A DNA stretch of 47,021 nucleotides from IMG/VR virus record IMGVR_UViG_3300037991_003683, positions 1-47,021 of that record. One strand, given 5' to 3'. Positions 3,027-46,533 of the stretch are shown here, piece after piece. A model generated the notes under the pieces. It saw only the letters and a list, made by a program, of their open reading frames with translations. It searched no databases and was not told where the DNA came from. Position 1 is the stretch's first letter; every line of letters begins with the position of its first letter. The stretch is from a virus (lineage: Duplodnaviria; Caudoviricetes). Position numbers and translations under genes: made by a program.

Positions 3027-3055
3027 TATTATCACTTATTTTTTTAATTGTTTAC
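3027..3055 (-). promoter_or_regulatory. putative late promoter GTAAA-N15-GTGATAATA
   Basis: Intergenic. Same bipartite motif and spacing as 15882-15910 and 44792-44820. Confidence 0.6.
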
Positions 3056-3060
3056 TTTAT

Positions 3061-6000
3061 TTATCTTCTACTTTTTAATAAACTTTTTCTCCTAACCTCT
3101 TCTTTTGTTTGTCTTCTTTGCTTTTTTCTTTTCTTAGTATTAGCTTTATTAATTCTAATTTTTTCTTTAGCCTCTATAACAGCTTCATTATCACCTAAAC
3201 CTAAACTCCAAGTTGTATAACCACTAAAGAACATTATTCTTTGGAACATTGTATAGTCTTTATCAAGAGCATTACGCATGTTTATACTTTTTTGATATAA
3301 CCTGTTTGCTGGAAAATTAGTTAAAGCTTCCGTGTAGTTTGTTACAGCTGACCACTGAGGATTATCAGCATCAAACGTTTCCATTTCACGAATAACATTT
3401 TCATTATAGTTAATAGTTTTTTCTGCATTAACTAGTTTTCTAGCCTTAATACCAACAACAGGTGAAAAGTTTAATAATTCCATTAATACAGCACTTTCAT
3501 CTTTGTTGTAATTAGGTTCTCTTTGTTCTTTCCATTTTATAACAGCATTTTTTAAAGTAGAAAGCACAGCGCCATATATACCAGAGCCTCTTAATATAGA
3601 ATCTATAGTACCTTGTATAACTCTTTCTCTTTTCTTTAATACTTGATCTTCATCTTCATCTTCATCAAACATAACCGCAAATAAAGCTGTTTGTAAGCTG
3701 TAGAATATAACATTTTGTATTGCGCCATAATATAGTATTTTAGATAAATTACCTAAGTTACTCTGTGTTTTAGTTGTATAAGGTGGTGATATTCTACCTT
3801 TACCAATATCTAAAGCAGCCTTTTTAATTATTCTGTTATATTGTGAAGTTATATTCTGAAAGTTTAAAACTAACTTACCTATCCAACTAGCTTGCTGCTG
3901 TGATGTCATGTCAGGCCTTGAAGACTGCTGAGTTGATTGAGTTAAATCTTGAAAGTCTGTAAAAGCTTTAGCTTCAGCTTCTTTTTGTTTTAAACCATCT
4001 TTTACATATTTGTTTACTCTATTTCTATAATAAGTAGCACCACCAGTAGCAATCGCGATATTATCACCAATTTGTGTAGGTAAAAAACCTAATTTTAACA
4101 ATTTACCTATAATTACTTTTGTAGGGTTTTTTGAACCTTGAACTGCTTGCGCAAGATCAGCACCGTTAATATCAGTACCAATACCACCTCTTCTTTGTTT
4201 TAACATGTCAGAATTAAATATAAACGCGAAGTCAGCCCAGTATTGTTTTTGATTAGCAAAAGCTTTAGCAGCAGCAAATATATTATTATCTGCAAAGTTT
4301 ATATAGTTAACAATAGACATTTGCTGCAATATAGCTGATCTAGTATTGAAAAACATAACAGCACCAACAGATCCGTTTAAATAATTCATTAGCTTATTTA
4401 CTGTTCCAGTTTGTCCTTTTGGTCTGTTAACACCTGTTTTTATTCTATGTAATATATCTTCTAAAGCACTTCTAAAATCAGCTCCATAACCAGCTTCTAT
4501 TTTATTTAAATTTTCTTCAGAAAATAATACATCTGCATTTTCGTTAAATTCAGTAAAGTATTCTGCTCTACCAACTCTACCAGTAGCATCTATTAAATCT
4601 GTTTTTATATTACCACCTTCCCAACCTTGACCTGGTTCTACGTATTTATCTTGTTTAGATATTGTGTTTATAGTTTCAGCATAATCTCTTAATTCAGAAT
4701 CATTCATTACTAATTCTACTAAATTAGCTTGATCAGTTTCACTTAAACCAGGTATATTGTAACCATGTTTATTCCATAAATAAACCCTTATAGCGTCTTC
4801 AAAAATAAAATCACCATCTGGAGTTTTTTTATTAAGCTTATCTTTAACCTCTTTAAGCTGTTTGTTTAACTGTTTATAATCATTTGCTATAGCTTGTTTA
4901 GCTGTATCTATTTCTCTATAAGCTCTATTTAAAGGTCTAACTAAAGCTTTTTCAAAAAAGTCTCTATGTTTATCGCCTTGTCTACCTGTACCCATAAAGT
5001 TGTATAATAAACCTACAAAATCTTCGTGTGATGGTGGTATAAAAAATCTAAACTTACCTTTACTAGCACCACGTTTTCTAGCTTTAATAGCTGAAAAACG
5101 TTTAATAGCTTCAATACCAGTAACATCTTCTAGTATATTATTAAACTGATCGTTCATACCTTTGCTAAAATTAATCTTAGCTTGTTGTACTTTACGTTTA
5201 ACATCAAATTGTTCTAGCATGTTATCTACAGCTTTTACATTTTGAATAGCATCATCTGCAAAATAAAAATCATTATAACCTTCAGCAACTTTACCAGCTA
5301 TCCAATTAGCTTTAGCTTCAGCTGTAGAATTAGCAAGGCCTGTAATATTTTTTAAAGGTATATTTAAACCATTAGCTTTTAAAAATTCAAATATAGCTGG
5401 TGCAGATTCAGCAGGTCTAGCTGTTAATATAAACATATTTTCAGGACCAAACTTACTTTGTAGTTTTAAAGCTTTATTAAACAATGGCGCTGTTTTACCT
5501 TCAACAACTTTAGTAAACTCTGAAAAATCAAACTCATAACCTAACTCAGTTAAACTTTCATAAGTACTAGCGTATTGTTCAGCATTTAAAGTTCCTGTAG
5601 TACCATCTGGTCTAGTAAATCTAATCAAAGACTTACTTGTTGCTAGTGTATCATCAAAATCTAAAACAGTAATACCTTTAACCTCATTGTTTGTTGATCG
5701 AGAAAAATTTATAGAATTATTTAAATTGTCAAACTGTGTAGACTTGCTAAAAGGAATACCAACAAATTCATAACCTTTTTTACTTATAATTTCTTTTACT
5801 TCAGCTAACCCCATTATAGTATTTAAATCACCAGTTGTTTTGTGTTTTTTGTTTATCACTTCCACAATATCATTAGGTAATAAAACAGTTTTAGAATTAT
5901 CTATTATTTTTTCAACTTGACTTAAGTTTTTATCAGTAGGATTATTAACATATTTATTAGCAGCTTTAAGAAGTTTGTTAACAGGCTCTCTATGCTCTAA

Positions 6001-9000
6001 CGTTGTTTTACCTTTATAGTTTTTAATATAACCAATAAGCGGTGCTATTTTTCTAACTGGCCCAACCATATCAACGGATCCTAAAGTTAATCTAGCCATT
6101 TTTACTTCTGGATTTAATTTTGATTTAAGTATATTTAAAAACCATTTTTTAGCTTGTTCAGCCTCTTGTTTACTAGTTTCTATAAAGCTAGCTGGGTTTT
6201 GTTTTATTTCTATTATTTGAATATAAGTATCTAAATCTTCATTGTTATAAGTAATTTTTGTACCTTTATCAAGTTCTCTAAAACTAAAACCTTTTACATT
6301 TAAAGGTTTTATAATCAATTTAAACACTTGCTCGTTCGTGGTTATAGTTTTACCTTCATATTTAACTTTAGCTGTTCTTAAAGATTTACTATTATTTATT
6401 AACCAGTCTTTTATTATATTAACTTTTTTAGAGTCAGTTGTTGCTTTTTTAACATCTTCTTGAAGTTCTTTTACAGCGTTGTTAAATGCAATTTGTTTTA
6501 TCTTAACCTCTGTAATAATTTTTATTTGACCTAAAATATTAGACAAATGGTCTTTAGTAAAAACACCATCTGATAAAATACCTAATATATTATTGCCACT
6601 TCTCATGTAGCTAGTTGCGGCCCAAGTGTTATTAACTATATCTGAAAAAGTTAAACCATACTGTATGTTATCTAAAAATATTTCAAAAAAATCTTTTTCT
6701 AAACTTTCTTCTGGTAAACTATTTATTATATCTCTAACAGCAATTCTACTTTTTCTAACCTGATCTCTTTTCCCATCCATAAGAGTTGTCCACTTGTTGT
6801 TGTTAGCTAATAGATTATAATTAATAAAACCATTAGAAAACTTTATACTTAGATCTTGTTGTTCACCATTTATTTTTAAAGTTTGCAACTTGCCTGAACG
6901 TATATCTTCAATTGAACTTGCTAAACTAGCATTAAGCGTAATTTCTATAGCAACTTTTTGCCCTTGTAAATCATAATATCTTTCATACGCAGGAGTTAAA
7001 AACTCTAAATTTGTTTTTGTAAAACCTTTTGCTAAACTAGGATCATTAAATTCTTTAAAAAATCTTTGGTTAACAGTACCTTCTACCTTTATAGTTTCTT
7101 TACCTAAATCAGAAATATAATCTTTGTAAGTATTTGTTCTTTCGTAGCTAGTTATATTATCAAGATGAATAGCGTCTTCACCAAAAGTATTTTTTACTAC
7201 TTCTTTTTTGTCTTTATAAACTCTTGTTTCTTTATCAGATAACCTATCACCATTTTCATAAATACTAGTTACAGAAATATCAATACTAGGCGCTTCTGTA
7301 AGCTCGAACTGTCTACCATGTAATTTACCATTTTTAGTATTAGTTTCACTAATTATTACTCCGTCAATATTTTTTACTATAACGCTACCAGTCTTGCTAT
7401 TACCAACTACTTTTTCATATTTTAATATTTTTGGCTCTACACCAGGTTTTTTAAGTTGAGCTTGAACAACTGGTCTAAAACCATCTTTTGCTTTTTTACC
7501 TTTAACTATAGGCGCCGCAGTAGGATTGTCCATTCTATCCCACCATTGCATCTGATTACCATCTCTAAAAGAAATTAGCTTACCATTTTGAAAGGCTATT
7601 TGGTGGCCATTACCTTTTTTGTTGTAGCTTTTCCACAGATTAAAAGATTTTTTTAAAGATTCTCCTGGAGTCATACCTGTAACAAAAAACCTACCCTCAC
7701 CATCAGTAATAGCTTTTATATCTGTGTATTGATTATTTCCTTTAATCCATTTGTTAGCTTCTTTTTGAGCTTCTTTAAGTGTATTATGTTCATCACCAAG
7801 TTTAACTCGAGTTGGTGCTATTCTAGCGCACAAGCACCAAGGATTTGCTTTTTTACCAAAATGAGTATCAATTACTTTTCTAGTATCAAGTTGTCCTTGT
7901 TTTGAGTCTTCAACATCATAAACTACCACACCGTTAGTGTACTCTGTTTTGTTAGTAAACGTCTTAACGTTATCTGGATTAGTTCTAACAGCTTTAACTT
8001 GATCTACGTACGTTTCTATTAAAACGTTAGGATTTTTAAAAGAGAATGGATCTAACTTCTTTAGAGCAGCTATTCTTTCAGCTTCTATAACCTTATAACC
8101 ATCTTCAGGTAATATTAAGTAACCATTAGCCATGTAATGCATAGCTAATTTTTCATATTTACTTTTTTTATTATTAGGTATATCTTTACCATCTATAAAA
8201 TCAAATACGCTTTGCACAGCGTTTTTTCTTTGCTCTTCAGTAAGATCAGGTCTTCTTTTAGTTAGTTGTTTTTCGTATTGATCTCTATGAGCTTTTGAAA
8301 ACTTAATTTGAGAATAAACGTTTACATCGCCAATACCATTCATTGCATCTAAAATATCAACATCGGCTGTTGTTTTAGAAAACTTAACACCAACCTCTCT
8401 ACCAATAGCAGCGCCTAACTCAGCCGCACTTAATGAGCTAGCGTTCATATTAGCAATTCTATCTTGAACTTCAATAGATTGTTCAGCCTCCATTATAGCA
8501 TCAGTAACTAAACTATTTACCATACGCATTACAATACCATCTTTTCTAGTACCTTTTAAACCTTGTCTAGCGCCAGTAACAGGATTGATACCCGGTTGAT
8601 CTGCAAAACTAACGAGTTCAGTTTCTGTAGGCATTATTTTTTGATATAGATTTACAGAGTAAGCACCTTTACCTGTTTTTTTATCTCTAGTAATCTTGTT
8701 TAAAGCGTCAGGTGGTAATTGTTGTTTGTTAACAGCATCTTGTACTTGATCTTTAGATGTTAGTGTTGCTACGAATTTTGTAAAAATTCTATCAACCTCA
8801 GGTATCTTTTTTTCCATCTGCACTAAGTCAGCTGTAGATATATTTTCAAAAATAACTTCTCTATATTTTTTCAACTGAGATATGTAAATATCTTTTGTGC
8901 CTCTAGCTACTTTTGCTTCTGACACACCGTAAGTTATAAAGTTTTTAATTTGTTTAAACAAAGGACTATTAAGATTACTGTACTCTTTTTTCATTTTAGT

Positions 9001-12000
9001 AGCTATAGCTTTAGCTCGTAATTGAGCATCGGTAATATTTTGAGTAGCACCATAAGCTATTATTAAACTTTTCTTAACATTGTCTAGTACTTGGTTATAT
9101 ATTTTACTACCAGTATCAAAGCCTAAATCTCTTCTAAACTTAGAATATTTTTGTTTTTTTGTTTTACTTTTCTTAGCTTGACCTTCAATAGATAAATCTT
9201 CTGTTTCAAAAGCTAATGTGGTTGGATCTATATCGGTATCTTCTATATCAAAAGTTGTTTCACCCTCTTTAGTTCTTTTAGCGGCATCTATTCTTAATGT
9301 TTTACCTTCTTTTTCACCTTCTATAGCTAAGTCTCTAGCAGCATCTAGTTTCGCAAATTGAGTATCAGACATTATACGCTCACCAATAGTTACAGCTTCT
9401 TTACTACCGGTTTTTCTTTTTGCCTGTGGATTATAACCCATTAATCTATCAGAAACCTTTTGTATTGTTTGTTTAGTTTTATCTTTACTCATACCAAGGC
9501 TTTTGATGTAGTTGTTTACAGCACCGCCAGCTTCAGTTATAGAATCAAATAACTCATTAAACTCGTCACTTGTTCTAAACTCATCTTGAGTATATTCTTT
9601 GTTTTCTGCTTTTAACCTGTTTTTTAATTTTTGCTCTATTTTATTTACCACTCCAACAGCCGCGGATCTTGAAAACTTTGCTTTTTTAGTTTCTTCTTCA
9701 GGACCTAAAATTAAAGTTTGGTTTCTAGTACTACGCTGAAAGCTATCAATATATCCAAGCACGTCTTTAGTGTTGTCAAGCTTAAAAAACATACTACCTT
9801 TTTTAAAATATTTCTTAGAAAGTTGATTAAACATTAGTTTAAAAGAAAGTAAAGCATCTCTAGAGTTTTCGCTTAATATGCCAGCGTTTTTAAGTTCACC
9901 AGCTATAGCTAAAAGCTCCATTAAATCTCCTTCGCTGTAACTAGCAAGTCTTTTCTTATAGGTGTTATAATCTTTTTCTTTTATTTTACCTTGCTTGTAA
10001 AGATTATCAACTTCTGTTTTAATACCTTCAACAGCTATTTTTGAAGATTCAATAACTTCATTGTCTTCAATTAAACCAGTCTTAATATCGTTTATGTGTT
10101 GTAGTTCATGAATAGGAGAATAAGCAGCTATAGACTTTTCAAAAGCAGTTTCAGCATTATTTATATTACGTATAATATTAGCTTCTACAACAATAGCTTC
10201 GTTACCTAAAAAACTAGCATTAGAACCTTCTCTAAAGCCTTTTAAGTACATGTTTTTTTGCTGTTTAGCGGTTACAATTGTTCCGTTTTTTAATTTTTTG
10301 TCTTTTATTTTACCAGACTTTATTGCTTTGTCTAAATACGCTTCTAAGTCAGTTAAATCAAGAGTTCCATCTTCATTTATCTTACCAAACTGTTGTACTT
10401 TACCTAATCCTTTAACAATATTAAGAGCACCTTGATACTTTCCAAAATAAAACTCTGTGTCTATTTTTGCTATATCTTCTTTTAAAGTGTCTTCAATAAT
10501 CTTTTTTCTTCTTTCACTAGGTTTGTTTCTTAAATCATCTCTTTTTGCGTTTATTTCTTTAATCTCATTAACAAGCTTTTCTTTTTTATTTTTTACATAT
10601 TTACTACCTGTCTTTTCATAAGCGCTAGTTGCACCTAGGTTTTGAATTTCTTTAAGCTTATCTCTTTTCTTTTGGTTAAGCTCAAACATTTGATTAACTT
10701 CAACAGCTGTCATGTTAGCAACTTCAGCCATAGTATAAGAGTCTACAAGAGCAGCTTCTCTTATTAATCTGTTATTATCAAACTCTAATTGGTTTCTTTG
10801 ATCGTTATCTAAAAGTGTAAATCCAGATTCTTGATCTGCTTGTAACGTTGCATTAATTTCAATTATTTGATCTCTTCTTGCTCTATTTTCTCTTATTTCA
10901 CTTTGAGTATTAATTTCACTTCTAATGGTGTTATATACGTTCATGCTTACAGAAGGACCCTGAATTGCAAGAGTTGAAAACATTACATTAGCACTAAAGT
11001 TTTTATCAATACCGTCTAATAAATTTTTGTTTTGACCTAAAACAGTCATATCAACCAAATTGTGACCAACTTGAGTAGCAAACTCTTCAAAATACTCAGT
11101 TCCAACACCTTTACCTACCTGCCATGAGGCTTTCATAGTGTTAGCAAAATTTAACCTACCATTAGTAGGAGATACTCTGTTTAAGTTTTTTAAAATACGC
11201 ATAGTACCCAAACGTTCAGCATACATCGCAATACCACCGTACATAACTGAAGAAAATGCTTTTTGTAATTCCGTAGCATCTAAAGCTCCTTGGTAATAAT
11301 CTATTTGATTTAGTATTTCAAGTTTTTCACCTTGAGTAACAGCAAGTGCTAAAGATTTTTGTAAATCTTTTATCATTTTAGGTGCATTTTTTTGATCAAT
11401 CTCCATGTGAGTATATTTTGCACCTGCTTCAAGTCCAAAAAAAGTACCACTTAAAATTTTAGTTGATCTTGCTACATTTGCACCTAATTTAATAGCCCCT
11501 CCATAAGTTAATGCAGAACCAATACTAAAAGCATTGTTTGCTAAAGCCTGCGAAGCCCATTGTCCAATGTTATCTAAACCAACATCGTCAAAGTCAATAT
11601 TTAAAGGAAGAGAAACTTGCTTGTACTCTCTTAAACTTTCGTTATAATCAATAACAGCCGCATGTTGTTTTTTAGCAAAATTAGAAAATATATCTTGATT
11701 ACCAGTAATTCTGTCTAAAACCCAAGCAAAAGCCTTAGAGGTACCAGATAAAAGAGATGTCATTTCAGCAATACCAGTTTCGAAACTTAAACTAGTTCTG
11801 TTTGCCCACCCATAATCTAAAGCCAATGCTTTTGATATAGTAGTAATATCACTTACCTTATCAAAATTATCTACAAGTTTATCAAAATTAGATTGTAAAA
11901 TTTCTGCTGATTTAGATATTTCTTTTATGTTGATGTTTTTTGATAATAATTCACTTCTATATTCAGCTGATAAATTATCACCTTGCTGTATTAAGTTGTT

Positions 12001-13068
12001 GTATTCTTGTATTTTTTCTTTAGAAGAATACTCATCAACTTCTCCAAGCGCATCAATAGAAGATTTTATTCTAGAAAACAAACCTTCATACCTGCTGTTT
12101 ATATTAATGTAATCATTGTACTTTTCTTCCCAGTCTCTTGATTTTTGCTCGTACTCCGAAAACTTTGTGTTAAAGTATTTTTCTAAAACTTTTTCAGCTT
12201 TACTACCTTGCTGTTTTATTTTCATGGCAGCATAATTTGTACCTGTAAAACCTTTAGCTCTTAAATCTTTTACCGCGGCTTGTGCTTTTCTATCAGCTTC
12301 TAAAGCCTCTGTATACATCTGTAAGTAATCTCCATCTTCTGGGTCAAAAATATTAAATACACCTTCTTGCGCTGATCTTCTACTTTCCGCAACCATTTCT
12401 TTATCTCCAGTAAAAAAATCACCTACATCAAGTCTACTAGTGTATTGTTCAATTTCTTCTTGTCTAGTTGAACGAATAGCTTCTTTAACAACACTTTCTT
12501 CTACTAAATTTGAATCAAAAACTTCAGTTTCTTTATAACGTAAATATTCTTTGTATTTTTTATCTCCAAAAAAACTTTTTAAATCTTCTTCTTCTGATTT
12601 GGCATATCTAAATCCACCTCCAGCTAAAATACCAGCTTCGCTTTTAACCATTTTTCTTGATCTATTAAAACTTTCTAAATTAAAATACTTTTCAGCTAAT
12701 TTGTTTTTAACTTTAAAATGGTTTCTTGTTACACCATTAGAAATAGCAAGTAAAGTTGCATTAAGTTCTTCAGATGTATTTGGTAAATCCAAAGTGCCAA
12801 CGTCCAAGCCTGACTCCGTAACGACTGGCTCTACGCCTGGAGTCGCATCCGCAGAGCCTTTTGTTTTTCCCAATAAGTTAGTTGTCCACTCTTCTTGATT
12901 AGAAGCTTTTAAACTGTAATTTTCTTTTAAATAATTATATACATTAGTTTGTATATTTTGATCTTGAATAAAACTATTTTTCCACTCTTCAAAATCTTTT
13001 GCTTTAAGATTAAGGTTAGAATCTTTGTTTAGTGTATTCCAAATATTATTTAATATTTCTTCGTTCAT
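3061..13068 (-). CDS. giant virion ejection / polyvalent protein (zincin HExxH, HAD phosphatase, other modules)
   Basis: 3335 aa, last of three internal-protein-type genes after the tail module. HELQH at aa ~987 with a downstream E. HAD motifs DFDDT / ILTAR / K / FADD at aa ~2465-2615. Hydrophobic helices near both ends. Confidence 0.75.
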   Translation of the reverse strand: MNEEILNNIWNTLNKDSNLNLKAKDFEEWKNSFIQDQNIQTNVYNYLKENYSLKASNQEEWTTNLLGKTKGSADATPGVEPVVTESGLDVGTLDLPNTSEELNATLLAISNGVTRNHFKVKNKLAEKYFNLESFNRSRKMVKSEAGILAGGGFRYAKSEEEDLKSFFGDKKYKEYLRYKETEVFDSNLVEESVVKEAIRSTRQEEIEQYTSRLDVGDFFTGDKEMVAESRRSAQEGVFNIFDPEDGDYLQMYTEALEADRKAQAAVKDLRAKGFTGTNYAAMKIKQQGSKAEKVLEKYFNTKFSEYEQKSRDWEEKYNDYININSRYEGLFSRIKSSIDALGEVDEYSSKEKIQEYNNLIQQGDNLSAEYRSELLSKNINIKEISKSAEILQSNFDKLVDNFDKVSDITTISKALALDYGWANRTSLSFETGIAEMTSLLSGTSKAFAWVLDRITGNQDIFSNFAKKQHAAVIDYNESLREYKQVSLPLNIDFDDVGLDNIGQWASQALANNAFSIGSALTYGGAIKLGANVARSTKILSGTFFGLEAGAKYTHMEIDQKNAPKMIKDLQKSLALAVTQGEKLEILNQIDYYQGALDATELQKAFSSVMYGGIAMYAERLGTMRILKNLNRVSPTNGRLNFANTMKASWQVGKGVGTEYFEEFATQVGHNLVDMTVLGQNKNLLDGIDKNFSANVMFSTLAIQGPSVSMNVYNTIRSEINTQSEIRENRARRDQIIEINATLQADQESGFTLLDNDQRNQLEFDNNRLIREAALVDSYTMAEVANMTAVEVNQMFELNQKKRDKLKEIQNLGATSAYEKTGSKYVKNKKEKLVNEIKEINAKRDDLRNKPSERRKKIIEDTLKEDIAKIDTEFYFGKYQGALNIVKGLGKVQQFGKINEDGTLDLTDLEAYLDKAIKSGKIKDKKLKNGTIVTAKQQKNMYLKGFREGSNASFLGNEAIVVEANIIRNINNAETAFEKSIAAYSPIHELQHINDIKTGLIEDNEVIESSKIAVEGIKTEVDNLYKQGKIKEKDYNTYKKRLASYSEGDLMELLAIAGELKNAGILSENSRDALLSFKLMFNQLSKKYFKKGSMFFKLDNTKDVLGYIDSFQRSTRNQTLILGPEEETKKAKFSRSAAVGVVNKIEQKLKNRLKAENKEYTQDEFRTSDEFNELFDSITEAGGAVNNYIKSLGMSKDKTKQTIQKVSDRLMGYNPQAKRKTGSKEAVTIGERIMSDTQFAKLDAARDLAIEGEKEGKTLRIDAAKRTKEGETTFDIEDTDIDPTTLAFETEDLSIEGQAKKSKTKKQKYSKFRRDLGFDTGSKIYNQVLDNVKKSLIIAYGATQNITDAQLRAKAIATKMKKEYSNLNSPLFKQIKNFITYGVSEAKVARGTKDIYISQLKKYREVIFENISTADLVQMEKKIPEVDRIFTKFVATLTSKDQVQDAVNKQQLPPDALNKITRDKKTGKGAYSVNLYQKIMPTETELVSFADQPGINPVTGARQGLKGTRKDGIVMRMVNSLVTDAIMEAEQSIEVQDRIANMNASSLSAAELGAAIGREVGVKFSKTTADVDILDAMNGIGDVNVYSQIKFSKAHRDQYEKQLTKRRPDLTEEQRKNAVQSVFDFIDGKDIPNNKKSKYEKLAMHYMANGYLILPEDGYKVIEAERIAALKKLDPFSFKNPNVLIETYVDQVKAVRTNPDNVKTFTNKTEYTNGVVVYDVEDSKQGQLDTRKVIDTHFGKKANPWCLCARIAPTRVKLGDEHNTLKEAQKEANKWIKGNNQYTDIKAITDGEGRFFVTGMTPGESLKKSFNLWKSYNKKGNGHQIAFQNGKLISFRDGNQMQWWDRMDNPTAAPIVKGKKAKDGFRPVVQAQLKKPGVEPKILKYEKVVGNSKTGSVIVKNIDGVIISETNTKNGKLHGRQFELTEAPSIDISVTSIYENGDRLSDKETRVYKDKKEVVKNTFGEDAIHLDNITSYERTNTYKDYISDLGKETIKVEGTVNQRFFKEFNDPSLAKGFTKTNLEFLTPAYERYYDLQGQKVAIEITLNASLASSIEDIRSGKLQTLKINGEQQDLSIKFSNGFINYNLLANNNKWTTLMDGKRDQVRKSRIAVRDIINSLPEESLEKDFFEIFLDNIQYGLTFSDIVNNTWAATSYMRSGNNILGILSDGVFTKDHLSNILGQIKIITEVKIKQIAFNNAVKELQEDVKKATTDSKKVNIIKDWLINNSKSLRTAKVKYEGKTITTNEQVFKLIIKPLNVKGFSFRELDKGTKITYNNEDLDTYIQIIEIKQNPASFIETSKQEAEQAKKWFLNILKSKLNPEVKMARLTLGSVDMVGPVRKIAPLIGYIKNYKGKTTLEHREPVNKLLKAANKYVNNPTDKNLSQVEKIIDNSKTVLLPNDIVEVINKKHKTTGDLNTIMGLAEVKEIISKKGYEFVGIPFSKSTQFDNLNNSINFSRSTNNEVKGITVLDFDDTLATSKSLIRFTRPDGTTGTLNAEQYASTYESLTELGYEFDFSEFTKVVEGKTAPLFNKALKLQSKFGPENMFILTARPAESAPAIFEFLKANGLNIPLKNITGLANSTAEAKANWIAGKVAEGYNDFYFADDAIQNVKAVDNMLEQFDVKRKVQQAKINFSKGMNDQFNNILEDVTGIEAIKRFSAIKARKRGASKGKFRFFIPPSHEDFVGLLYNFMGTGRQGDKHRDFFEKALVRPLNRAYREIDTAKQAIANDYKQLNKQLKEVKDKLNKKTPDGDFIFEDAIRVYLWNKHGYNIPGLSETDQANLVELVMNDSELRDYAETINTISKQDKYVEPGQGWEGGNIKTDLIDATGRVGRAEYFTEFNENADVLFSEENLNKIEAGYGADFRSALEDILHRIKTGVNRPKGQTGTVNKLMNYLNGSVGAVMFFNTRSAILQQMSIVNYINFADNNIFAAAKAFANQKQYWADFAFIFNSDMLKQRRGGIGTDINGADLAQAVQGSKNPTKVIIGKLLKLGFLPTQIGDNIAIATGGATYYRNRVNKYVKDGLKQKEAEAKAFTDFQDLTQSTQQSSRPDMTSQQQASWIGKLVLNFQNITSQYNRIIKKAALDIGKGRISPPYTTKTQSNLGNLSKILYYGAIQNVIFYSLQTALFAVMFDEDEDEDQVLKKRERVIQGTIDSILRGSGIYGAVLSTLKNAVIKWKEQREPNYNKDESAVLMELLNFSPVVGIKARKLVNAEKTINYNENVIREMETFDADNPQWSAVTNYTEALTNFPANRLYQKSINMRNALDKDYTMFQRIMFFSGYTTWSLGLGDNEAVIEAKEKIRINKANTKKRKKQRRQTKEEVRRKSLLKSRR

Positions 13069-13082
13069 ATTTGTATTTTATT

Positions 13083-14630
13083 TTAACCTAAATTATTTTC
13101 AGATCTACCATACATTTGGTCTAAAAACTGTTCTTTTGTCCATGTTTGTGTTTCTTCAGAAAAACCACCTTCACCATCGTTTAATGTTTCATCGTATTTT
13201 TTTATCACTTTATTTTTACCTTCACCACTACCGTAAATACCTGTGATAACACCTTGTTTATCCATTCTATATCTATTTCCAAAATAATCAAAGAAAACAC
13301 CACCAGGAACCATTCTTTCAACTTGTTTATCTACATCTAAAGTTTGATTTTTAAAGTAACCTATATCTCTATACGTTCCCCGTGATACGTCCCAAACACC
13401 TCTTGCGCCACCAACCTTAGTAGCTCTTTGTTCTTCTTCTTTAGTTTCATATTGTTCTGGGAATTCTAATTTGTTGTAATATGAATATCTATTATCATAT
13501 TTTTGTTGTGCAAAATTTGTAAAATAACCTGCTAATAAATCTCTAGATCTTTCTAAGCTAAAGTTTTCGTTATCTACATCTGTTAAAACATCAATCATTT
13601 GCTTGTAGTTATTTTCAAAAACTTCTCTATCCGCGTCTGAAAGACCTTCTATATCTTTACTGTTTATTACACCATCTTTAAATTTATCCATGTTTTCAAA
13701 CATGTCTTTAAACGTTACGTCCATTGTATCAATAGCAATGTTCATGTCATCTAGCAAGTTATTTCTAAAAGATTTTTGATGTACATTTTGTAATCTTCTA
13801 AAAGCTAAGTTTGTAAAATCTTCTTTTGTTTGTACTTGATTAGAAAATATATTGTAAAATTCTTGCTCATCAAAATTTTTTTGGTTTTGTCTACCGTGCT
13901 CTTTAGCCTGCTCACCAGCAGAACTTATTGTTTTAAGTATAACAGCGTCAGCTTTTAAGTCAGTTTGTGGTATATTTTTTCTTAACTGCTCCATGTTATA
14001 ACTAACATCACCAGTAGGTAGATCGCCATCCATTAAATGATTAATTACTCTAAATGTTAGTTTATCATCAACAAAAGAAACAGATACATTATCATCTTTA
14101 TCTATATTATCCACGTTGAACATTCTTTTCATAGCTATTATATCTCCTTTTATAGCTCCATTGTTCCACATTTTAGTGTCTTGACCTAATAAACCAAGTG
14201 TTGATCTAACTTCTATAGCTTGGTTTATAACTCTTTTAAGTTCACCACTTATTCTCATTCTAGCTCTTTCGTTTTCAACCGTATCTCTTTTACCATAAGT
14301 GTTTACAGCTTCAAACTCATCTTGCAATTCTCTAACCTTTGCATCTACAGCATTAACAATTTCTTGTGGCATAGTCTGTTCTTGTTCAAAAAGCAACTTA
14401 TAGTTTTTATTCATTATATCTTTAAAACTATCTAATTGTTTTTCTCTACCAATACTAATTTTTTCTTCTTTTTCTTTAAAACCTTTAACAGCATCTTCTA
14501 CAATACCTAAATAAGCTTTTGTACTTTCAACATTGCTTTCATATAAAGGTTTTAGGTTTGGAACTTGAGTTCCAGCTCTACTCATTGACTCTTGAAGAGA
14601 CGCTTTTACTAAAGTACTATCTGCTGCCAT
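13083..14630 (-). CDS. putative internal virion (ejection) protein
   Basis: 515-aa helical, charged protein between the small and giant ejection-type genes (T7 gp14/15/16-like synteny; inference). Confidence 0.55.
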   Translation of the reverse strand: MAADSTLVKASLQESMSRAGTQVPNLKPLYESNVESTKAYLGIVEDAVKGFKEKEEKISIGREKQLDSFKDIMNKNYKLLFEQEQTMPQEIVNAVDAKVRELQDEFEAVNTYGKRDTVENERARMRISGELKRVINQAIEVRSTLGLLGQDTKMWNNGAIKGDIIAMKRMFNVDNIDKDDNVSVSFVDDKLTFRVINHLMDGDLPTGDVSYNMEQLRKNIPQTDLKADAVILKTISSAGEQAKEHGRQNQKNFDEQEFYNIFSNQVQTKEDFTNLAFRRLQNVHQKSFRNNLLDDMNIAIDTMDVTFKDMFENMDKFKDGVINSKDIEGLSDADREVFENNYKQMIDVLTDVDNENFSLERSRDLLAGYFTNFAQQKYDNRYSYYNKLEFPEQYETKEEEQRATKVGGARGVWDVSRGTYRDIGYFKNQTLDVDKQVERMVPGGVFFDYFGNRYRMDKQGVITGIYGSGEGKNKVIKKYDETLNDGEGGFSEETQTWTKEQFLDQMYGRSENNLG

Positions 14631-14638
14631 ATTATTTT

Positions 14639-15364
14639 TTATTTATTTTTATCTTCATCTTCAATTCCAAAAAAATCTATCTCACCAGCTGCAGTGCCAA
14701 TGCTTTTTAATAAACCTGCTGTAGCATTGTTTTGAGCTATTTGAGCGTTCATTTGATTAGCTAACGCTTGTTGTTCAGCTACATTAGCACCAGTAGCTTG
14801 TCCCATCTGCATGCCGAGTAAAGTTGCTTGTCTATCCATTTCAGCTTGTTGAACAAACTGTTGACCTTGCCTTTCGTATGTTTGAACAGCCATAGCGCCT
14901 TTAGCGGCTGCTATTTGATTTGCTTGCTCTTGCTTGCCAATTGAAGCTGATATTCTTTGTGTTTGTAATTGACCTTGATTTGCTAACGCTTGTGCTAAAC
15001 CAGCTATACCAGTACTACCAGCTGCTCCCCTTAAGTTTTGTAGTATATTAGCTCTTTGCCTTTCGCCTTGTTCTGCTTCAAATTGAGCTTGCTGTTGATT
15101 TACTGTTAAGTCTTCAAAAACGTTTTCCATGTTAGCAAAAGGATTTGTAAACTCCATACGTCTATATGCTGCTTTTTCTACATCTAAAGCCGCTTGCTGT
15201 TCTTTACGTCTTTCTTCAGCTTTTTTCACAGCTTCTTCAGCTTCTGTTCGATTTTGAGCGGAGTTTATTAAGCTAACACCAGCCGAAACAGTACCAACTA
15301 CTATTGCGCCCCAAGTTCTATCCATATGATTGTTTGGTGACATTACACCTGTTAAATTTATCAT
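14639..15364 (-). CDS. putative small ejection/pilot protein
   Basis: 241 aa, Q/A-rich coiled coil with a Gly-rich hydrophobic N-terminus (WGAIVVGTVSAGVSLI). Confidence 0.6.
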   Translation of the reverse strand: MINLTGVMSPNNHMDRTWGAIVVGTVSAGVSLINSAQNRTEAEEAVKKAEERRKEQQAALDVEKAAYRRMEFTNPFANMENVFEDLTVNQQQAQFEAEQGERQRANILQNLRGAAGSTGIAGLAQALANQGQLQTQRISASIGKQEQANQIAAAKGAMAVQTYERQGQQFVQQAEMDRQATLLGMQMGQATGANVAEQQALANQMNAQIAQNNATAGLLKSIGTAAGEIDFFGIEDEDKNK

Positions 15365-15881: not shown

Positions 15882-15910
15882 AATAGTCACAGTTTTGCTT
15901 GTTTTTTTAC
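15882..15910 (-). promoter_or_regulatory. putative late promoter GTAAA-N15-GTGACTATT
   Basis: Intergenic, upstream of the cupin and ejection genes, with the same 15-bp spacer. Confidence 0.6.
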
Positions 15911-41080: not shown

Positions 41081-41338
41081 TTAATCTACTAGAACAACGT
41101 CACCATCACGAATAACTCTATAAAGAGTATCTTTCCATGATATGTCGTGTCCAGCGTGTTTATCGTAATATATCGTGTCTCCATCTTTTAATCCTTCAAC
41201 TAAATTGCCACACGATATTATTTTTGCTTTTATATAACGGTTATCTACATCTGTATCATCCGTCATTATAAGACCAGCAACCTTTTTAGGTTCTGTCTTT
41301 ATTTTATCTACTATTATATATCTATTTATTGCTTTCAT
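41081..41338 (-). CDS. groES: co-chaperonin GroES
   Basis: MKAINRYIIV...AGLIM...AKIISCG...LKDGDTIYY...VIRDGDVVLV; overlaps the end of groEL. Confidence 0.85.
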   Translation of the reverse strand: MKAINRYIIVDKIKTEPKKVAGLIMTDDTDVDNRYIKAKIISCGNLVEGLKDGDTIYYDKHAGHDISWKDTLYRVIRDGDVVLVD

Positions 41339-42890
41339 TTAATCTCATGTTTGAAATTACACAATCTGCAGATATAATAGTTGTAACTACACTTACTGCG
41401 TTTTTAAGAGCTGACTTAGTTACAAGTACAGGATCTATAATACCAGCTGATATCATAGTAGCTCTTTCACCAGTTATTACATCAATACCGTAACCTTCAT
41501 GATCCTCATATCCATCCATCATTGTTATACCAGCATTATCAAGTACGGTATAAAAAGGAGCCATAATAGCTTTTAGTAATATGTTTTCCCCAACGTTTTT
41601 AGCTATAATTCTTTGTGAGGCATTTAACAAAGCTACACCACCACCTGGTACTATACCTTCTTTTAAAGCCGCTTTTGTAGCATAAATAGCATCTTCTACT
41701 CTATCCTTCTTTTCTTTAAGCTCAACTTTAGAGTTAGCACCAACTTTTACTACGCCTACGCTACCTGATAACATTGCTAATCTTTCTCTATGTTTCTTTT
41801 GTATAAACGGATTTTTCTCCCATTTATCTATAGTTTTCTTAACACTATCTATTCTTTCATCCATATCTTCTTCTGGAGTATCTATAGTTAAAACAGTGTT
41901 TTTACTATCAGTAATCGATGTGTATGCCTCACCTAAGCAATCAATGTCTATTAAATCAAGATCATCACCTAACTGCTCGTTTATTACTTTAGCACCAACT
42001 AAAAACGCAAGGTCTGCTACAGTATCTTCTTTAGTAGGACCAAAGCCTGGTAAATCAATTATGTTTACCTTTATATTACCTTTTACCTTGTTCATAAGAA
42101 GAGCAGCCTTAACTTGTTGATCAACTGGAGCTACTATTAATAAAGAGCGTTTATTTTTTATTACATGCTCTAATATTTTTTGTATTCTTCTTATATTAGG
42201 TATTTCTGAAGATACTATTAATACTAATGGGTTATCAAGCTCTGCTACTTGCTTGTCCTTATCAGTAACAAAATGTGGAGATGTGAGTCCTGAATCTACC
42301 TGCACGCCGTCAACTACTTCGACGTATGTTTCTTCAGTTGGTGACTCTTCCATTAATACCACACCATCTTTACCTACTTTAGTATAAGCTTCCGCTATAA
42401 TCTTTCCTAGTTCCGCATCATTGTTACAACTTATTGAACTAACAGATTCGAGCATATCGCCTTCGATCTTGACAGAAATCTTATTTAGGTAATCGTTTAC
42501 CTTTTTAAGACCGGATTTAATTCCGTCTTTTATTTCTCTTGTATTAGCTTCGGTTTTGCTAACTTCTTTTAAAAGTGCTTCAGCAAGGACAGTAGATGTT
42601 GTTGTACCGTCACCTGCTTCTCTCACTGTATTTCTAGCAGCTTCTTTAATAAGGGTAGCACCCATATTTTCAACCGGGTCAAATAAGACAACTGATTCTG
42701 CTACAGTTACTCCGTCTTTTGTTATGACCGGGTTACCTCTAGCGTCTTCGTAAATTACACACTTACCAGATGCACCTAAGGTTGATTTTACTGCTTTTGC
42801 TAGCTTTTCAACGCCAGCTACTATTTTGTTATTAGCGTTATCGCCAAAGTTTACGTCTTTGACAATCTCGCTTGGTTGATTGTATTCCAT
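41322..42890 (-). CDS. groEL: chaperonin GroEL
   Basis: ITKDGVTVA, AGDGTTT, KEKKDRVEDA..ATKAA..EGIVPGGG and GIIDP motifs. Confidence 0.97.
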   Translation of the reverse strand: MEYNQPSEIVKDVNFGDNANNKIVAGVEKLAKAVKSTLGASGKCVIYEDARGNPVITKDGVTVAESVVLFDPVENMGATLIKEAARNTVREAGDGTTTSTVLAEALLKEVSKTEANTREIKDGIKSGLKKVNDYLNKISVKIEGDMLESVSSISCNNDAELGKIIAEAYTKVGKDGVVLMEESPTEETYVEVVDGVQVDSGLTSPHFVTDKDKQVAELDNPLVLIVSSEIPNIRRIQKILEHVIKNKRSLLIVAPVDQQVKAALLMNKVKGNIKVNIIDLPGFGPTKEDTVADLAFLVGAKVINEQLGDDLDLIDIDCLGEAYTSITDSKNTVLTIDTPEEDMDERIDSVKKTIDKWEKNPFIQKKHRERLAMLSGSVGVVKVGANSKVELKEKKDRVEDAIYATKAALKEGIVPGGGVALLNASQRIIAKNVGENILLKAIMAPFYTVLDNAGITMMDGYEDHEGYGIDVITGERATMISAGIIDPVLVTKSALKNAVSVVTTIISADCVISNMRLNESNK

Positions 42891-44791: not shown

Positions 44792-44820
44792 TATCATTAC
44801 ATGGTAAAGATTTTATTTAC
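44792..44820 (-). promoter_or_regulatory. putative late promoter GTAAA-N15-GTAATGATA
   Basis: Heads the whole minus-strand region, with the same 15-bp spacer as the other two copies. Confidence 0.6.
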
Positions 44821-44822
44821 AG

Positions 44823-44868
44823 TGTGACAATAGCCTGTTACTCTAATACTTAGCTAGCTAATGTCATA
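44823..44868. repeat. palindromic element, copy 1
   Basis: TGTGACAATAGCCTGTTACT...GCTAATGTCATA. The first 20 bp are identical to 45858-45877. Confidence 0.85.
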
Positions 44869-44890
44869 AAAAAAATATTGTGAATGTATA

Positions 44891-44977
44891 GAGTTTGCAT
44901 AGCCCCCTCCCCCCTAGGGCCCCCGGTCTAAACTAAAACGCAAACTAATTTACCCACCGGCTATGCGTTTAGCTAAA
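44891..44977. other. GC-rich structured element at the strand switch
   Basis: Inverted repeat GCATAGCC (44897-44904) / GGCTATGC (44959-44966), C5-C6-C5 tracts, and palindromes CCCTAGGG and TTTAGCTAAA. Confidence 0.6.
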
Positions 44978-45067: not shown

Positions 45068-45101
45068 CACAAGATAGACACAACAGTCAATAGATAATAT
45101 A
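45068..45101 (+). promoter_or_regulatory. putative early promoter, copy 1
   Basis: CACAA-GATAGACACAACAGTCAAT-AGATAATATA. Confidence 0.75.
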
Positions 45102-45261: not shown

Positions 45262-45295
45262 CACAATATAAATACAACTAATAATAGATAATATA
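45262..45295 (+). promoter_or_regulatory. putative early promoter, copy 2
   Basis: CACAA-TATAAATACAACTAATAAT-AGATAATATA. Confidence 0.75.
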
Positions 45296-45328: not shown

Positions 45329-45574
45329 ATGTCAAAAAAAGTAAACACAACTAACTTAACAACAAAAAGATTTGTAATCAGAAAGTCATTAATAGGTAAA
45401 CATACTATTATAACATTTGTAAACAAGAAAAATGAAACTGTAAAGTATGATCATGACCAAGTATACAATGTACACAAAGAAAGATTTGAAGCAATGAACT
45501 GTTTTCAAAAGTACAAAAACTACACAAACACTAATGCAATGCCAGCATTCTGTAGAGACTTACAAATAAAGTAA
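45329..45574 (+). CDS. early protein, paralog A (KRFV.RKSLIGK family)
   Basis: 81 aa, clearly homologous to 46297-46533. Confidence 0.8.
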   Translation: MSKKVNTTNLTTKRFVIRKSLIGKHTIITFVNKKNETVKYDHDQVYNVHKERFEAMNCFQKYKNYTNTNAMPAFCRDLQIK

Positions 45575-45594: not shown

Positions 45595-45628
45595 CACAAA
45601 CTAAATACTAATATAATAAGATAATATA
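45595..45628 (+). promoter_or_regulatory. putative early promoter, copy 3
   Basis: CACAA-ACTAAATACTAATATAATA-AGATAATATA, immediately preceded by the mini-hairpin ACCCC-ACT-GGGGT. Confidence 0.75.
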
Positions 45629-45857: not shown

Positions 45858-45905
45858 TGTGACAATAGCCTGTTACTAGATCCTTATTAAGTGGCTTATG
45901 TCACA
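45858..45905. repeat. palindromic element, copy 2
   Basis: TGTGACAATAGCCTGTTACT...GGCTTATGTCACA, flanked by AAAAC and CTTTTTT. Confidence 0.85.
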
Positions 45906-45973: not shown

Positions 45974-46007
45974 CACAAAATAATTACGACCACCATCAGA
46001 TAATATA
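45974..46007 (+). promoter_or_regulatory. putative early promoter, copy 4
   Basis: CACAA-AATAATTACGACCACCATC-AGATAATATA. Confidence 0.75.
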
Positions 46008-46216: not shown

Positions 46217-46250
46217 CACAAACTAAAAACGACACAAGTAAGATAATATA
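46217..46250 (+). promoter_or_regulatory. putative early promoter, copy 5
   Basis: CACAA-ACTAAAAACGACACAAGTA-AGATAATATA. Confidence 0.75.
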
Positions 46251-46296: not shown

Positions 46297-46533
46297 ATGT
46301 CAAAAGAAAATGTAATCAAAAGTAAAAGATTTGTAGTACGTAAGTCCTTGATAGGCAAGAACCAACTAATAGTATTCACTAATAAAAAAGGTGATGAAAT
46401 TAAGTACAACCACGATGTAGTATTTAATATAATGAAAGAAGGTTTAGAGAAACTCGCTTGCTGGGCAAAGTACAAGTCGTACACTGCAAGTAATAACATA
46501 CCTACGATACTAAGAGGTAAAGAGTTAGTTTAG
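46297..46533 (+). CDS. early protein, paralog B (KRFV.RKSLIGK family)
   Basis: 78 aa, homologous to 45329-45574. Confidence 0.8.
   Translation: MSKENVIKSKRFVVRKSLIGKNQLIVFTNKKGDEIKYNHDVVFNIMKEGLEKLACWAKYKSYTASNNIPTILRGKELV

Follow-up and report, generated by a model that had tools for sequence, protein, structure and literature searches.

A candidate virion-borne sigma-70 domain-2-like module and the early promoters of flavobacterial podoviruses

Can a phage bring into its host, as part of a giant virion protein, the specificity factor that opens its own early promoters? This question is raised by the DNA analysed here, a whole IMG/VR record of 47,021 bp that is about 80% complete (the window). 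A first-pass annotation had proposed that a stretch of one large protein, directly after its first KFSR site, is a divergent sigma-2 and sigma-finger unit that is injected with the DNA and retargets host RNA polymerase to a phage-specific early motif. The window belongs to a podovirus whose capsid protein shares 40-47% identity with those of Flavobacterium, Cellulophaga and Maribacter phages, and it contains the virion arm with terminase, portal and a muzzle-type protein, the early arm being represented by 2 kb only. The late arm also carries a GroEL-like gene with a GroES-sized neighbour (window 41081-42890), GroEL being present in 28 of the 50 records searched, and at the switch between the late and early arms lies a G/C-run palindrome (window 44903-44930) that is a possible genome-end or packaging signal. 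The features on which our analysis turns are collected in Table 1.

Table 1. Coordinates of the features discussed, in nucleotides of the window (aa, residues of the giant protein).
Feature	Position	Strand	Remark
Class II motif directly after giant gene	3027..3055	-	
Giant 3335-aa multidomain (polyvalent-type) protein	3061..13068	-	last of three cargo-position ORFs after muzzle gene
Conserved C-terminal region, aa 2633-3335	3064..5172	-	no named family (Pfam, PHROGs)
HAD-family phosphatase-like domain (DFDDT), aa 2454-2632	5173..5709	-	phrog_415 E 1.3e-4; motif conserved in alignment
dom2, aa 1294-1561	8386..9189	-	pLDDT 87.7, pTM 0.83; best Z 4.5; type covaries with promoter variant
Disordered acidic linker, aa 1256-1279	9232..9303	-	pLDDT <50; weak sigma-finger (region 3.2) likeness
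Sigma-70 domain-2-like helical domain, aa 1135-1257	9298..9666	-	pLDDT ~89; structural ranks 1-7; family profiles
KFSR boundary motif, candidate cleavage site, aa 1131	9667..9678	-	motif; cleavage putative
Zincin-like metallopeptidase region	9709..10191	-	HELQH at aa 987-991 (10096-10110); boundaries approximate
Two smaller ORFs, 515 + 241 aa, at small cargo protein positions	13083..15364	-	role suggested by gene order
Class II motif heading cargo gene block	15882..15910	-	matching late-strand copy in 7/7 genomes scanned
Muzzle-type tail protein, 2843 aa	17872..26403	-	PF25729 E 7.7e-6, just under its cut-off; phrog_14478 E 1.7e-125
Class II motif GTAAA-N14-NGTRAYDATW ahead of first late gene	44792..44820	-	
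Class I promoter-like motif copy 1	45068..45100	+	
Class I promoter-like motif copy 2	45262..45294	+	
Class I promoter-like motif copy 3	45595..45627	+	
Class I promoter-like motif copy 4	45974..46006	+	
Class I promoter-like motif copy 5	46217..46249	+	

A sigma-2-like domain in a giant protein at a cargo position

The gene order of the window places, among others, ORFs of 241, 515 and 3335 aa past the muzzle gene. In crAss001 the genes after the muzzle gene gp44 encode cargo proteins that were detected in virions (PMC10172136), and by gene order and analogy with crAss001 gp44-gp47 the 3335-aa protein likely travels in the virion. This giant protein joins unrelated domains that shuffle between relatives, as is characteristic of polyvalent proteins, and at the motif level it has the HExxH zincin-like MPTase associated with that class; no LPD family was matched in it by a Pfam scan. 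Across 81 giant proteins the metallopeptidase motif reads HExxH in 77 and HHDxxH in three and is missing from one, again at the level of the motif, and a Glu downstream of HExxH is conserved. The earlier observation that no virion RNA polymerase signature is visible was supported: the double-psi-barrel polymerase motif was not found in the giant protein, and the window's protein showed neither a DxDGD/DFDxD catalytic motif nor a polymerase family match in Pfam or PHROGs; a stray DxDGD/DFDxD-type match occurs in 2 of 80 giant proteins. Between dom2 and the HAD domain lies a variable slot, which in the window (aa 1590-2440, 850 aa) matches no named family and in the relative P0045 holds an AAA_33/Zeta_toxin-type kinase (aa 1661-1812).

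Further copies of the KFSR boundary motif, a candidate cleavage site, lie at aa 1562, 1589, 2439, 2454 and 2633 of the giant protein. The FS[KR] motif is about threefold enriched in the 81 giant proteins (245 observed against 84.5 expected), and a looser form of it falls within 25 aa of the start of the sigma-2-like domain in 46 of 80 proteins compared with 14% of random windows, a distance test that is partly circular given how the start was set. Neither aa 1131-1561 nor the C-terminal 882 aa of the giant protein had a match among cultured phages, and the syntenic big protein of the cultured relative Panino has no sigma-2-like domain and shares only an N-terminal stretch with relatives. Four copies of the giant gene with a sigma-2-like domain, together with six class I motifs, also occur in a Flavobacteriaceae assembly, G055 (contigs C7, C18 and C19; L381-L384); this fits a flavobacterial host, although the copies may be phage DNA that was binned with the assembly.

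The stretch singled out by the first-pass annotation, 9230-9670, was confirmed to encode aa 1134-1280 of the minus-strand ORF, with the first KFSR at aa 1131 (nt 9678); the residues that it quoted begin about 70 aa past this KFSR, within one predicted helical domain (aa 1131-1257, pLDDT ~89). Of 698 candidates, 57 proteins were retrieved with aa 1131-1320 as the query. An AlphaFold model of aa 1131-1561, built from an alignment with 52 of these proteins, shows two domains joined by a disordered linker, the first of them (aa 1131-1257) predicted with confidence. Structural alignment of this model with 48,161 PDB representatives placed sigma chains at ranks 1-7, though with Z of only 5.9-6.3, below the aligner's caution line of Z 8, under which a common helical arrangement may explain a match. 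The top match was 5uxx_C (Z 6.3, rmsd 3.2, 84 aligned), followed by 7d7d chain F (Z 6.2, rmsd 7.5, 125 aligned), which we take to be the late sigma gp55 of phage T4, and 1h3l_B matched with Z 6.2 and rmsd 2.8 over 76/78 aligned residues. Sigma is named in the title of 15 of the first 27 matches, four more of which are presumably sigmas as well, and the first non-sigma match has a Z of 5.9. Foldseek against the PDB spoke against the fold assignment, neither this model nor the one of the second domain alone giving a match at E 0.001. In BFVD, Foldseek matched a single protein of an uncultured virus (E 3e-5), along with two late sigmas of Campylobacter phages (E ~0.8), and the ESM Atlas gave no usable match. 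No sigma model in Pfam, PHROGs or NCBIfam matched the window's sequence alone, and single-sequence Pfam and PHROGs scans of 15 homologues likewise gave no sigma family.

Stronger evidence comes from the family as a whole. Relatives were fetched through the HAD and C-terminal part of the giant protein, which avoided selection on the sigma-like feature; out of 600 stretches 508 passed confirmation, and 80 were retained. The domain was found at the same position in 79 of these 80 loci, the metallopeptidase motif could be anchored in 79 of 80 (L177 was left out), and the 130 aa past this motif can be aligned as a single family. Starting from 20 hand-anchored rows, a model found 72 of the 80 rows at E <0.001; the iterated model recovered all 80, but this is circular. 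Among the 80 rows, NCBIfam matches were to TIGR02937 (5), SigI (4), SigK (3) and SigB (2), so that the four families matched by most members are all sigma-70, and subtypes B, C and D reach them separately; the best member's match, to TIGR02937 at E 1.3e-4, is below the curated sigma threshold. When a joint profile of 28 subtype B, C and D domains was compared with 177,635 PDB sequences, SigB (E 9.6e-5) and SigE (E 0.0052) were the top two matches, while of the mixed-subtype profiles one gave SigB as its sole match (E 0.036) and the other placed it behind a lipoprotein (E 0.046). The domain profile matches 509 clusters at 50% identity among 1.84 billion proteins, and C-terminal patterns of the giant protein occur in about 1200 viral stretches.

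The sigma likeness therefore exceeds chance at the family level, and ranking of folds, NCBIfam matches and the B/C/D profile against the PDB together uphold the earlier claim of a divergent sigma-2; we consider it very likely that the sigma-2 domain is real. The window's own subtype, A, had no sigma match as a profile, so that its assignment rests on its position in orthologous proteins, on the model and on a weak hhalign comparison with subtypes B, C and D (108 columns, E 0.002, probability 13.5%). The family alignment is in agreement with the register read by eye in the first-pass annotation, which placed YNPQ at the turn of region 2.3. In this alignment a region 2.3 column is Y, F or W in 65 of 80 rows and Arg in the window, the next candidate positions there being non-aromatic; we assume, by sigma-70 numbering, that this column is the position likely to stack on the flipped -10 base. 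Compared by hhalign with the stand-alone sigma that the family also encodes, the virion domain gave no significant score, similar to a reversed control, and thus no recent duplication from that sigma is shown.

The case for a sigma-70 factor covers domain 2: no domain 3 or 4 was found, and what follows the sigma-2-like domain is instead dom2, of unmatched fold. Modelled alone, dom2 gave no clear fold match (best Z 4.5) and no Foldseek match, and with no sigma chain among the 50 structural matches listed, its identification as sigma-3/4 found no support. The claim of a sigma finger is weakly supported: a matrix built from the finger of the relatives' stand-alone sigma and scanned over all 3335 aa has its best score in the protein exactly at the linker, aa 1256-1279 (19.2, next 11.9), but 4 of 15 shuffles scored as high or higher. 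Over the family, the best match of this matrix falls in the linker in 13 of 80 proteins against about 2 expected, with scores not above those of shuffles.

Two candidate promoter classes and a stand-alone sigma

The early motif CACAA-N19-AGATAATAT described in the first-pass annotation was borne out, with 5 copies in the window, all on the plus strand, against a mean of 0.06 and a maximum of 1 in shuffles. Its class I consensus consists of YACAAA, a middle element AAATACGA and GATAATA at fixed spacing, and the motif was recovered in relatives by de novo search. Of 20 regions fetched from 19 records, 17 contain the strict pattern, as do 11 of the 13 records that are more than 90% complete. A matrix trained on 39 copies from ten records other than those scanned gave 52 hits in 7 genomes, 50 of them in the early cluster on the early strand, compared with 1 hit in 35 shuffles. 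In 61 genomes of the family of the Formosa record G054 there were 24 one-mismatch class I matches, none exact, against 17 for the control, and the strict form is rare, in about 150 stretches in 596 Gb. The motif is thus phage-specific as had been supposed, and not a common host promoter: it is confined to the early arm and unenriched in host-family genomes. The Bacteroidetes -7 element is TAnnTTTG, and this element is mildly in excess on the early strands of 11 regions (51 versus 31 expected; 3 versus 1.2 together with a -33 element), which counts against a strictly phage-only start.

Several further elements were noted in and around the early arm. In three records (G035:67918, G041:9166, G052:53422), the first early copy stands back to back with a class I-like one that points towards the late arm. 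Two paralogous small early ORFs of 81 and 78 aa (window 45329-45574 and 46297-46533) each lie directly behind a class I motif and matched no convincing family in Pfam or PHROGs. An inverted repeat, TGTGACA...TGTCACA with a shared inner stretch, occurs at window 44823-44870 and 45858-45905 and is conserved in L227-L236 upstream of the gene preceding the stand-alone sigma, and may be an operator or replication signal. Just upstream of that sigma is a conserved 205-aa ORF (L227:782-1405, with equivalents in L228-L236) whose C-terminal end looks helix-turn-helix-like by eye, and its product may bind the inverted repeat or act as a partner of the sigma.

The stand-alone sigma itself, a sigma-70 protein of 250-255 aa that scores above the TIGR02937 cut-off, is encoded in 10 of 13 near-complete relatives, in the arm absent from the window. 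Its members are 52-88% identical to each other; in a comparison over mostly the same genomes, the sigma-2-like subtypes are highly divergent, at 9-55% identity. In 6 of 6 genomes mapped, 1.6-2.8 kb separate the sigma gene from the last class I copy upstream of it, which is on the same strand. A second, class II motif (Table 1) was located 20 times in 7 genomes: 14 copies are on the late strand, 5 directly follow the stand-alone sigma and 1 overlaps an inverted repeat. Shuffle means were 0.1-0.3 per genome, the pattern having been derived from the same genomes on which it was scored. A cascade is suggested by the presence of two promoter classes together with two sigma-like units. The first-pass annotation had argued that a specificity factor made in advance and carried in the virion would be needed; the stand-alone sigma shows that such a factor is not the sole phage sigma, but the logic of the argument is restored because the sigma gene lies downstream of class I and a second promoter class exists.

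Covariation of dom2 type with the early promoter

Which part of the proposed module might read the class I promoter? Sigma-2 and dom2 types combine in mixed pairings across phages. Covariation of the -10 element with sigma-2 subtype was rejected: GATAATA is invariant across sigma-2 subtypes that are 9-55% identical, and this constancy gives no support for specificity by sigma-2. Variation at the upstream end of the motif instead follows dom2. Eight genomes share the window's dom2 type; all 43 of their class I copies have C as the first base, and the middle ATAC is seen in 11. Among the 38 copies of 8 genomes with other dom2 types, 34 have T as the first base and 37 the middle ATAC. At the level of genomes, to which G016 and G002 were added in the other-dom2 group, all class I copies start with C in 8/8 genomes of the window's dom2 type versus 0/10 of the others (Fisher p 2e-5), a post hoc comparison that concerns mainly one base, draws on one or two copies in 5 of 18 genomes, and is made on mosaic genomes. 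Three genomes were left out: G014, which has another dom2 type and a single T copy, and G044 and G049, in which no class I copy was found. C-start copies also occur in 4 of the 10 other-dom2 genomes, and G016 (subtype B sigma-2) and G020 (subtype A), which both have another dom2 type, both have T-start copies.

Kinship does not explain this link, because the genomes with the window's dom2 type are scattered on three marker trees. The eight genomes require 5 changes both on a tree of the giant protein's last 700 aa (AU p 5e-34) and on a tree of GroEL, whose gene lies between the two loci (AU p 8e-30), and on the tree of the stand-alone sigma, with 4 against 4 genomes, they do not form a clade (AU p 0.009). 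These comparisons make dom2 a candidate reader of the upstream promoter element. The part that varies with the promoter, dom2 at aa 1294-1561, lies outside the stretch that the first-pass annotation had marked.

Proposed cascade, alternatives and known systems

Our best reading, which we think somewhat more probable than all others taken together, is that early transcription begins with an injected sigma-2 module and that late genes are then run by the stand-alone sigma. Judging from its gene position, the giant protein would be carried in the virion and injected with the DNA, after which its HExxH domain would cut at FS[KR] sites. Such cleavage would free a module composed of the predicted sigma-2 domain, the acidic linker and dom2. 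The sigma-2 domain may then dock on the beta-prime clamp helices of the host core polymerase and act at GATAATA, where dom2 would take the place of sigma-4 at YACAAA and the middle element. After its own synthesis the stand-alone sigma would read the class II motif for replication and late genes. The fuller statement, that marine flavobacterial podoviruses of one widespread family begin infection with a virion-delivered, proteolytically released two-part sigma (sigma-2 plus a new fold replacing sigma-4) that opens phage early promoters on host core and is followed by the stand-alone sigma, in a cascade whose first step is packed in the capsid, is in our judgement evenly poised between right and wrong.

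The same module could instead be a mimic, whose injected domain occupies the polymerase's sigma surface or soaks up an anti-sigma or defence protein while the host holoenzyme reads class I. The extreme divergence of sigma-2 beside a conserved -10 element would suit such a role, as would the Arg at the aromatic position in the window, the lack of a sigma-3/4 match in the structural searches with dom2, the mild excess of TAnnTTTG, and the independent swapping of sigma-2 and dom2 between phages, which is typical of conflict domains. We nevertheless find this unlikely: a motif read by the host holoenzyme sits poorly with a class I pattern that is unenriched in the 61 host-family genomes and is rare in its strict form (596 Gb), the link between promoter variants and dom2 type persists over three trees, and a lytic phage without its own polymerase needs an active host core. 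It is less probable still that the stand-alone sigma reads class I, in a feedback loop begun by weak host-type promoters, with the virion domain in a side role. That sigma is as conserved as the class I motif, and a conserved reader fits the invariant GATAATA better; one class I copy lies downstream of the sigma gene in 2 genomes, weak late-facing copies exist in a few, and some host-type -7 elements are present. Against it, the sigma gene sits behind class I copies, a separate class II motif lies right after that gene and before late genes, and the C/T promoter variants do not follow the sigma's tree in the comparison of 4 against 4 genomes. That the helical domain resembles sigma-2 through a common fold alone, and serves ejection or structure, we hold to be very improbable. 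The modest best Z and the missing Foldseek, Pfam and own-subtype profile matches are what one would then expect, but sigma chains would not be expected to concentrate at the top of 48,161 structures, nor would subtypes B, C and D separately match sigma families at the same position of orthologous proteins.

To our knowledge, phages obtain their first transcripts by relying on the host holoenzyme, by injecting a whole polymerase or by injecting a modifying enzyme. Injection of a specificity factor, if the cascade with the virion-borne module is correct, would be another route, in a large uncultured family; expression of early genes would then not depend on the unusual housekeeping sigma of Bacteroidetes, and dom2 would count as a new fold for reading promoters. 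With two promoter classes, two candidate factors and natural dom2 and promoter variants, the system is directly testable. We found no report of a virion-borne sigma in the literature, in which subscription journals were thinly covered.

Compared with sigma-70 domain 2 (PF04542; nearest structures RpoE 5uxx/2mao, SigR 1h3l, SigB 8x6g and SigE 8b3z), the phage domain has a similar predicted helical fold of about 80 residues, and in subtypes B-D a likeness of sequence is detectable in regions 2.1-2.4. It differs in being embedded in a late protein of 2200-3400 aa, in having no sigma-3/4 match, in its long region-2.3 loop and in scoring far below curated cut-offs, and sequence searches do not detect the window's subtype. 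Phage T4 gp55 works without a sigma-4 of its own; it is, however, small and free, and is produced in the course of infection to serve late genes, whereas the window's domain is part of a probable cargo protein and tied to early promoters.

For polyvalent proteins, injection, autoproteolysis and a jump-start of transcription have been proposed (Iyer et al. 2017; PMC5512222), and the same authors point out that the N4 polymerase is packaged uncut. The large late protein, the zincin HExxH domain and the unrelated shuffled modules are common to those proteins and to ours, but the transcription module described there is an N4-like RNA polymerase, and the main text of that paper does not use the word sigma (PMC5512222). 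With the crassvirus cargo gp45-gp47/49/50 (PMC10172136) and the N4 virion RNA polymerase, as far as these are described in that source, the window's phage shares the arrangement of muzzle, two smaller ORFs and giant ORF, and a proposed role in transcription on entry. The crassvirus cargo and N4 deliver a whole polymerase, whereas no conserved catalytic motif was found in the window's family, so that the window's phage would deliver the specificity module alone and use the host core.
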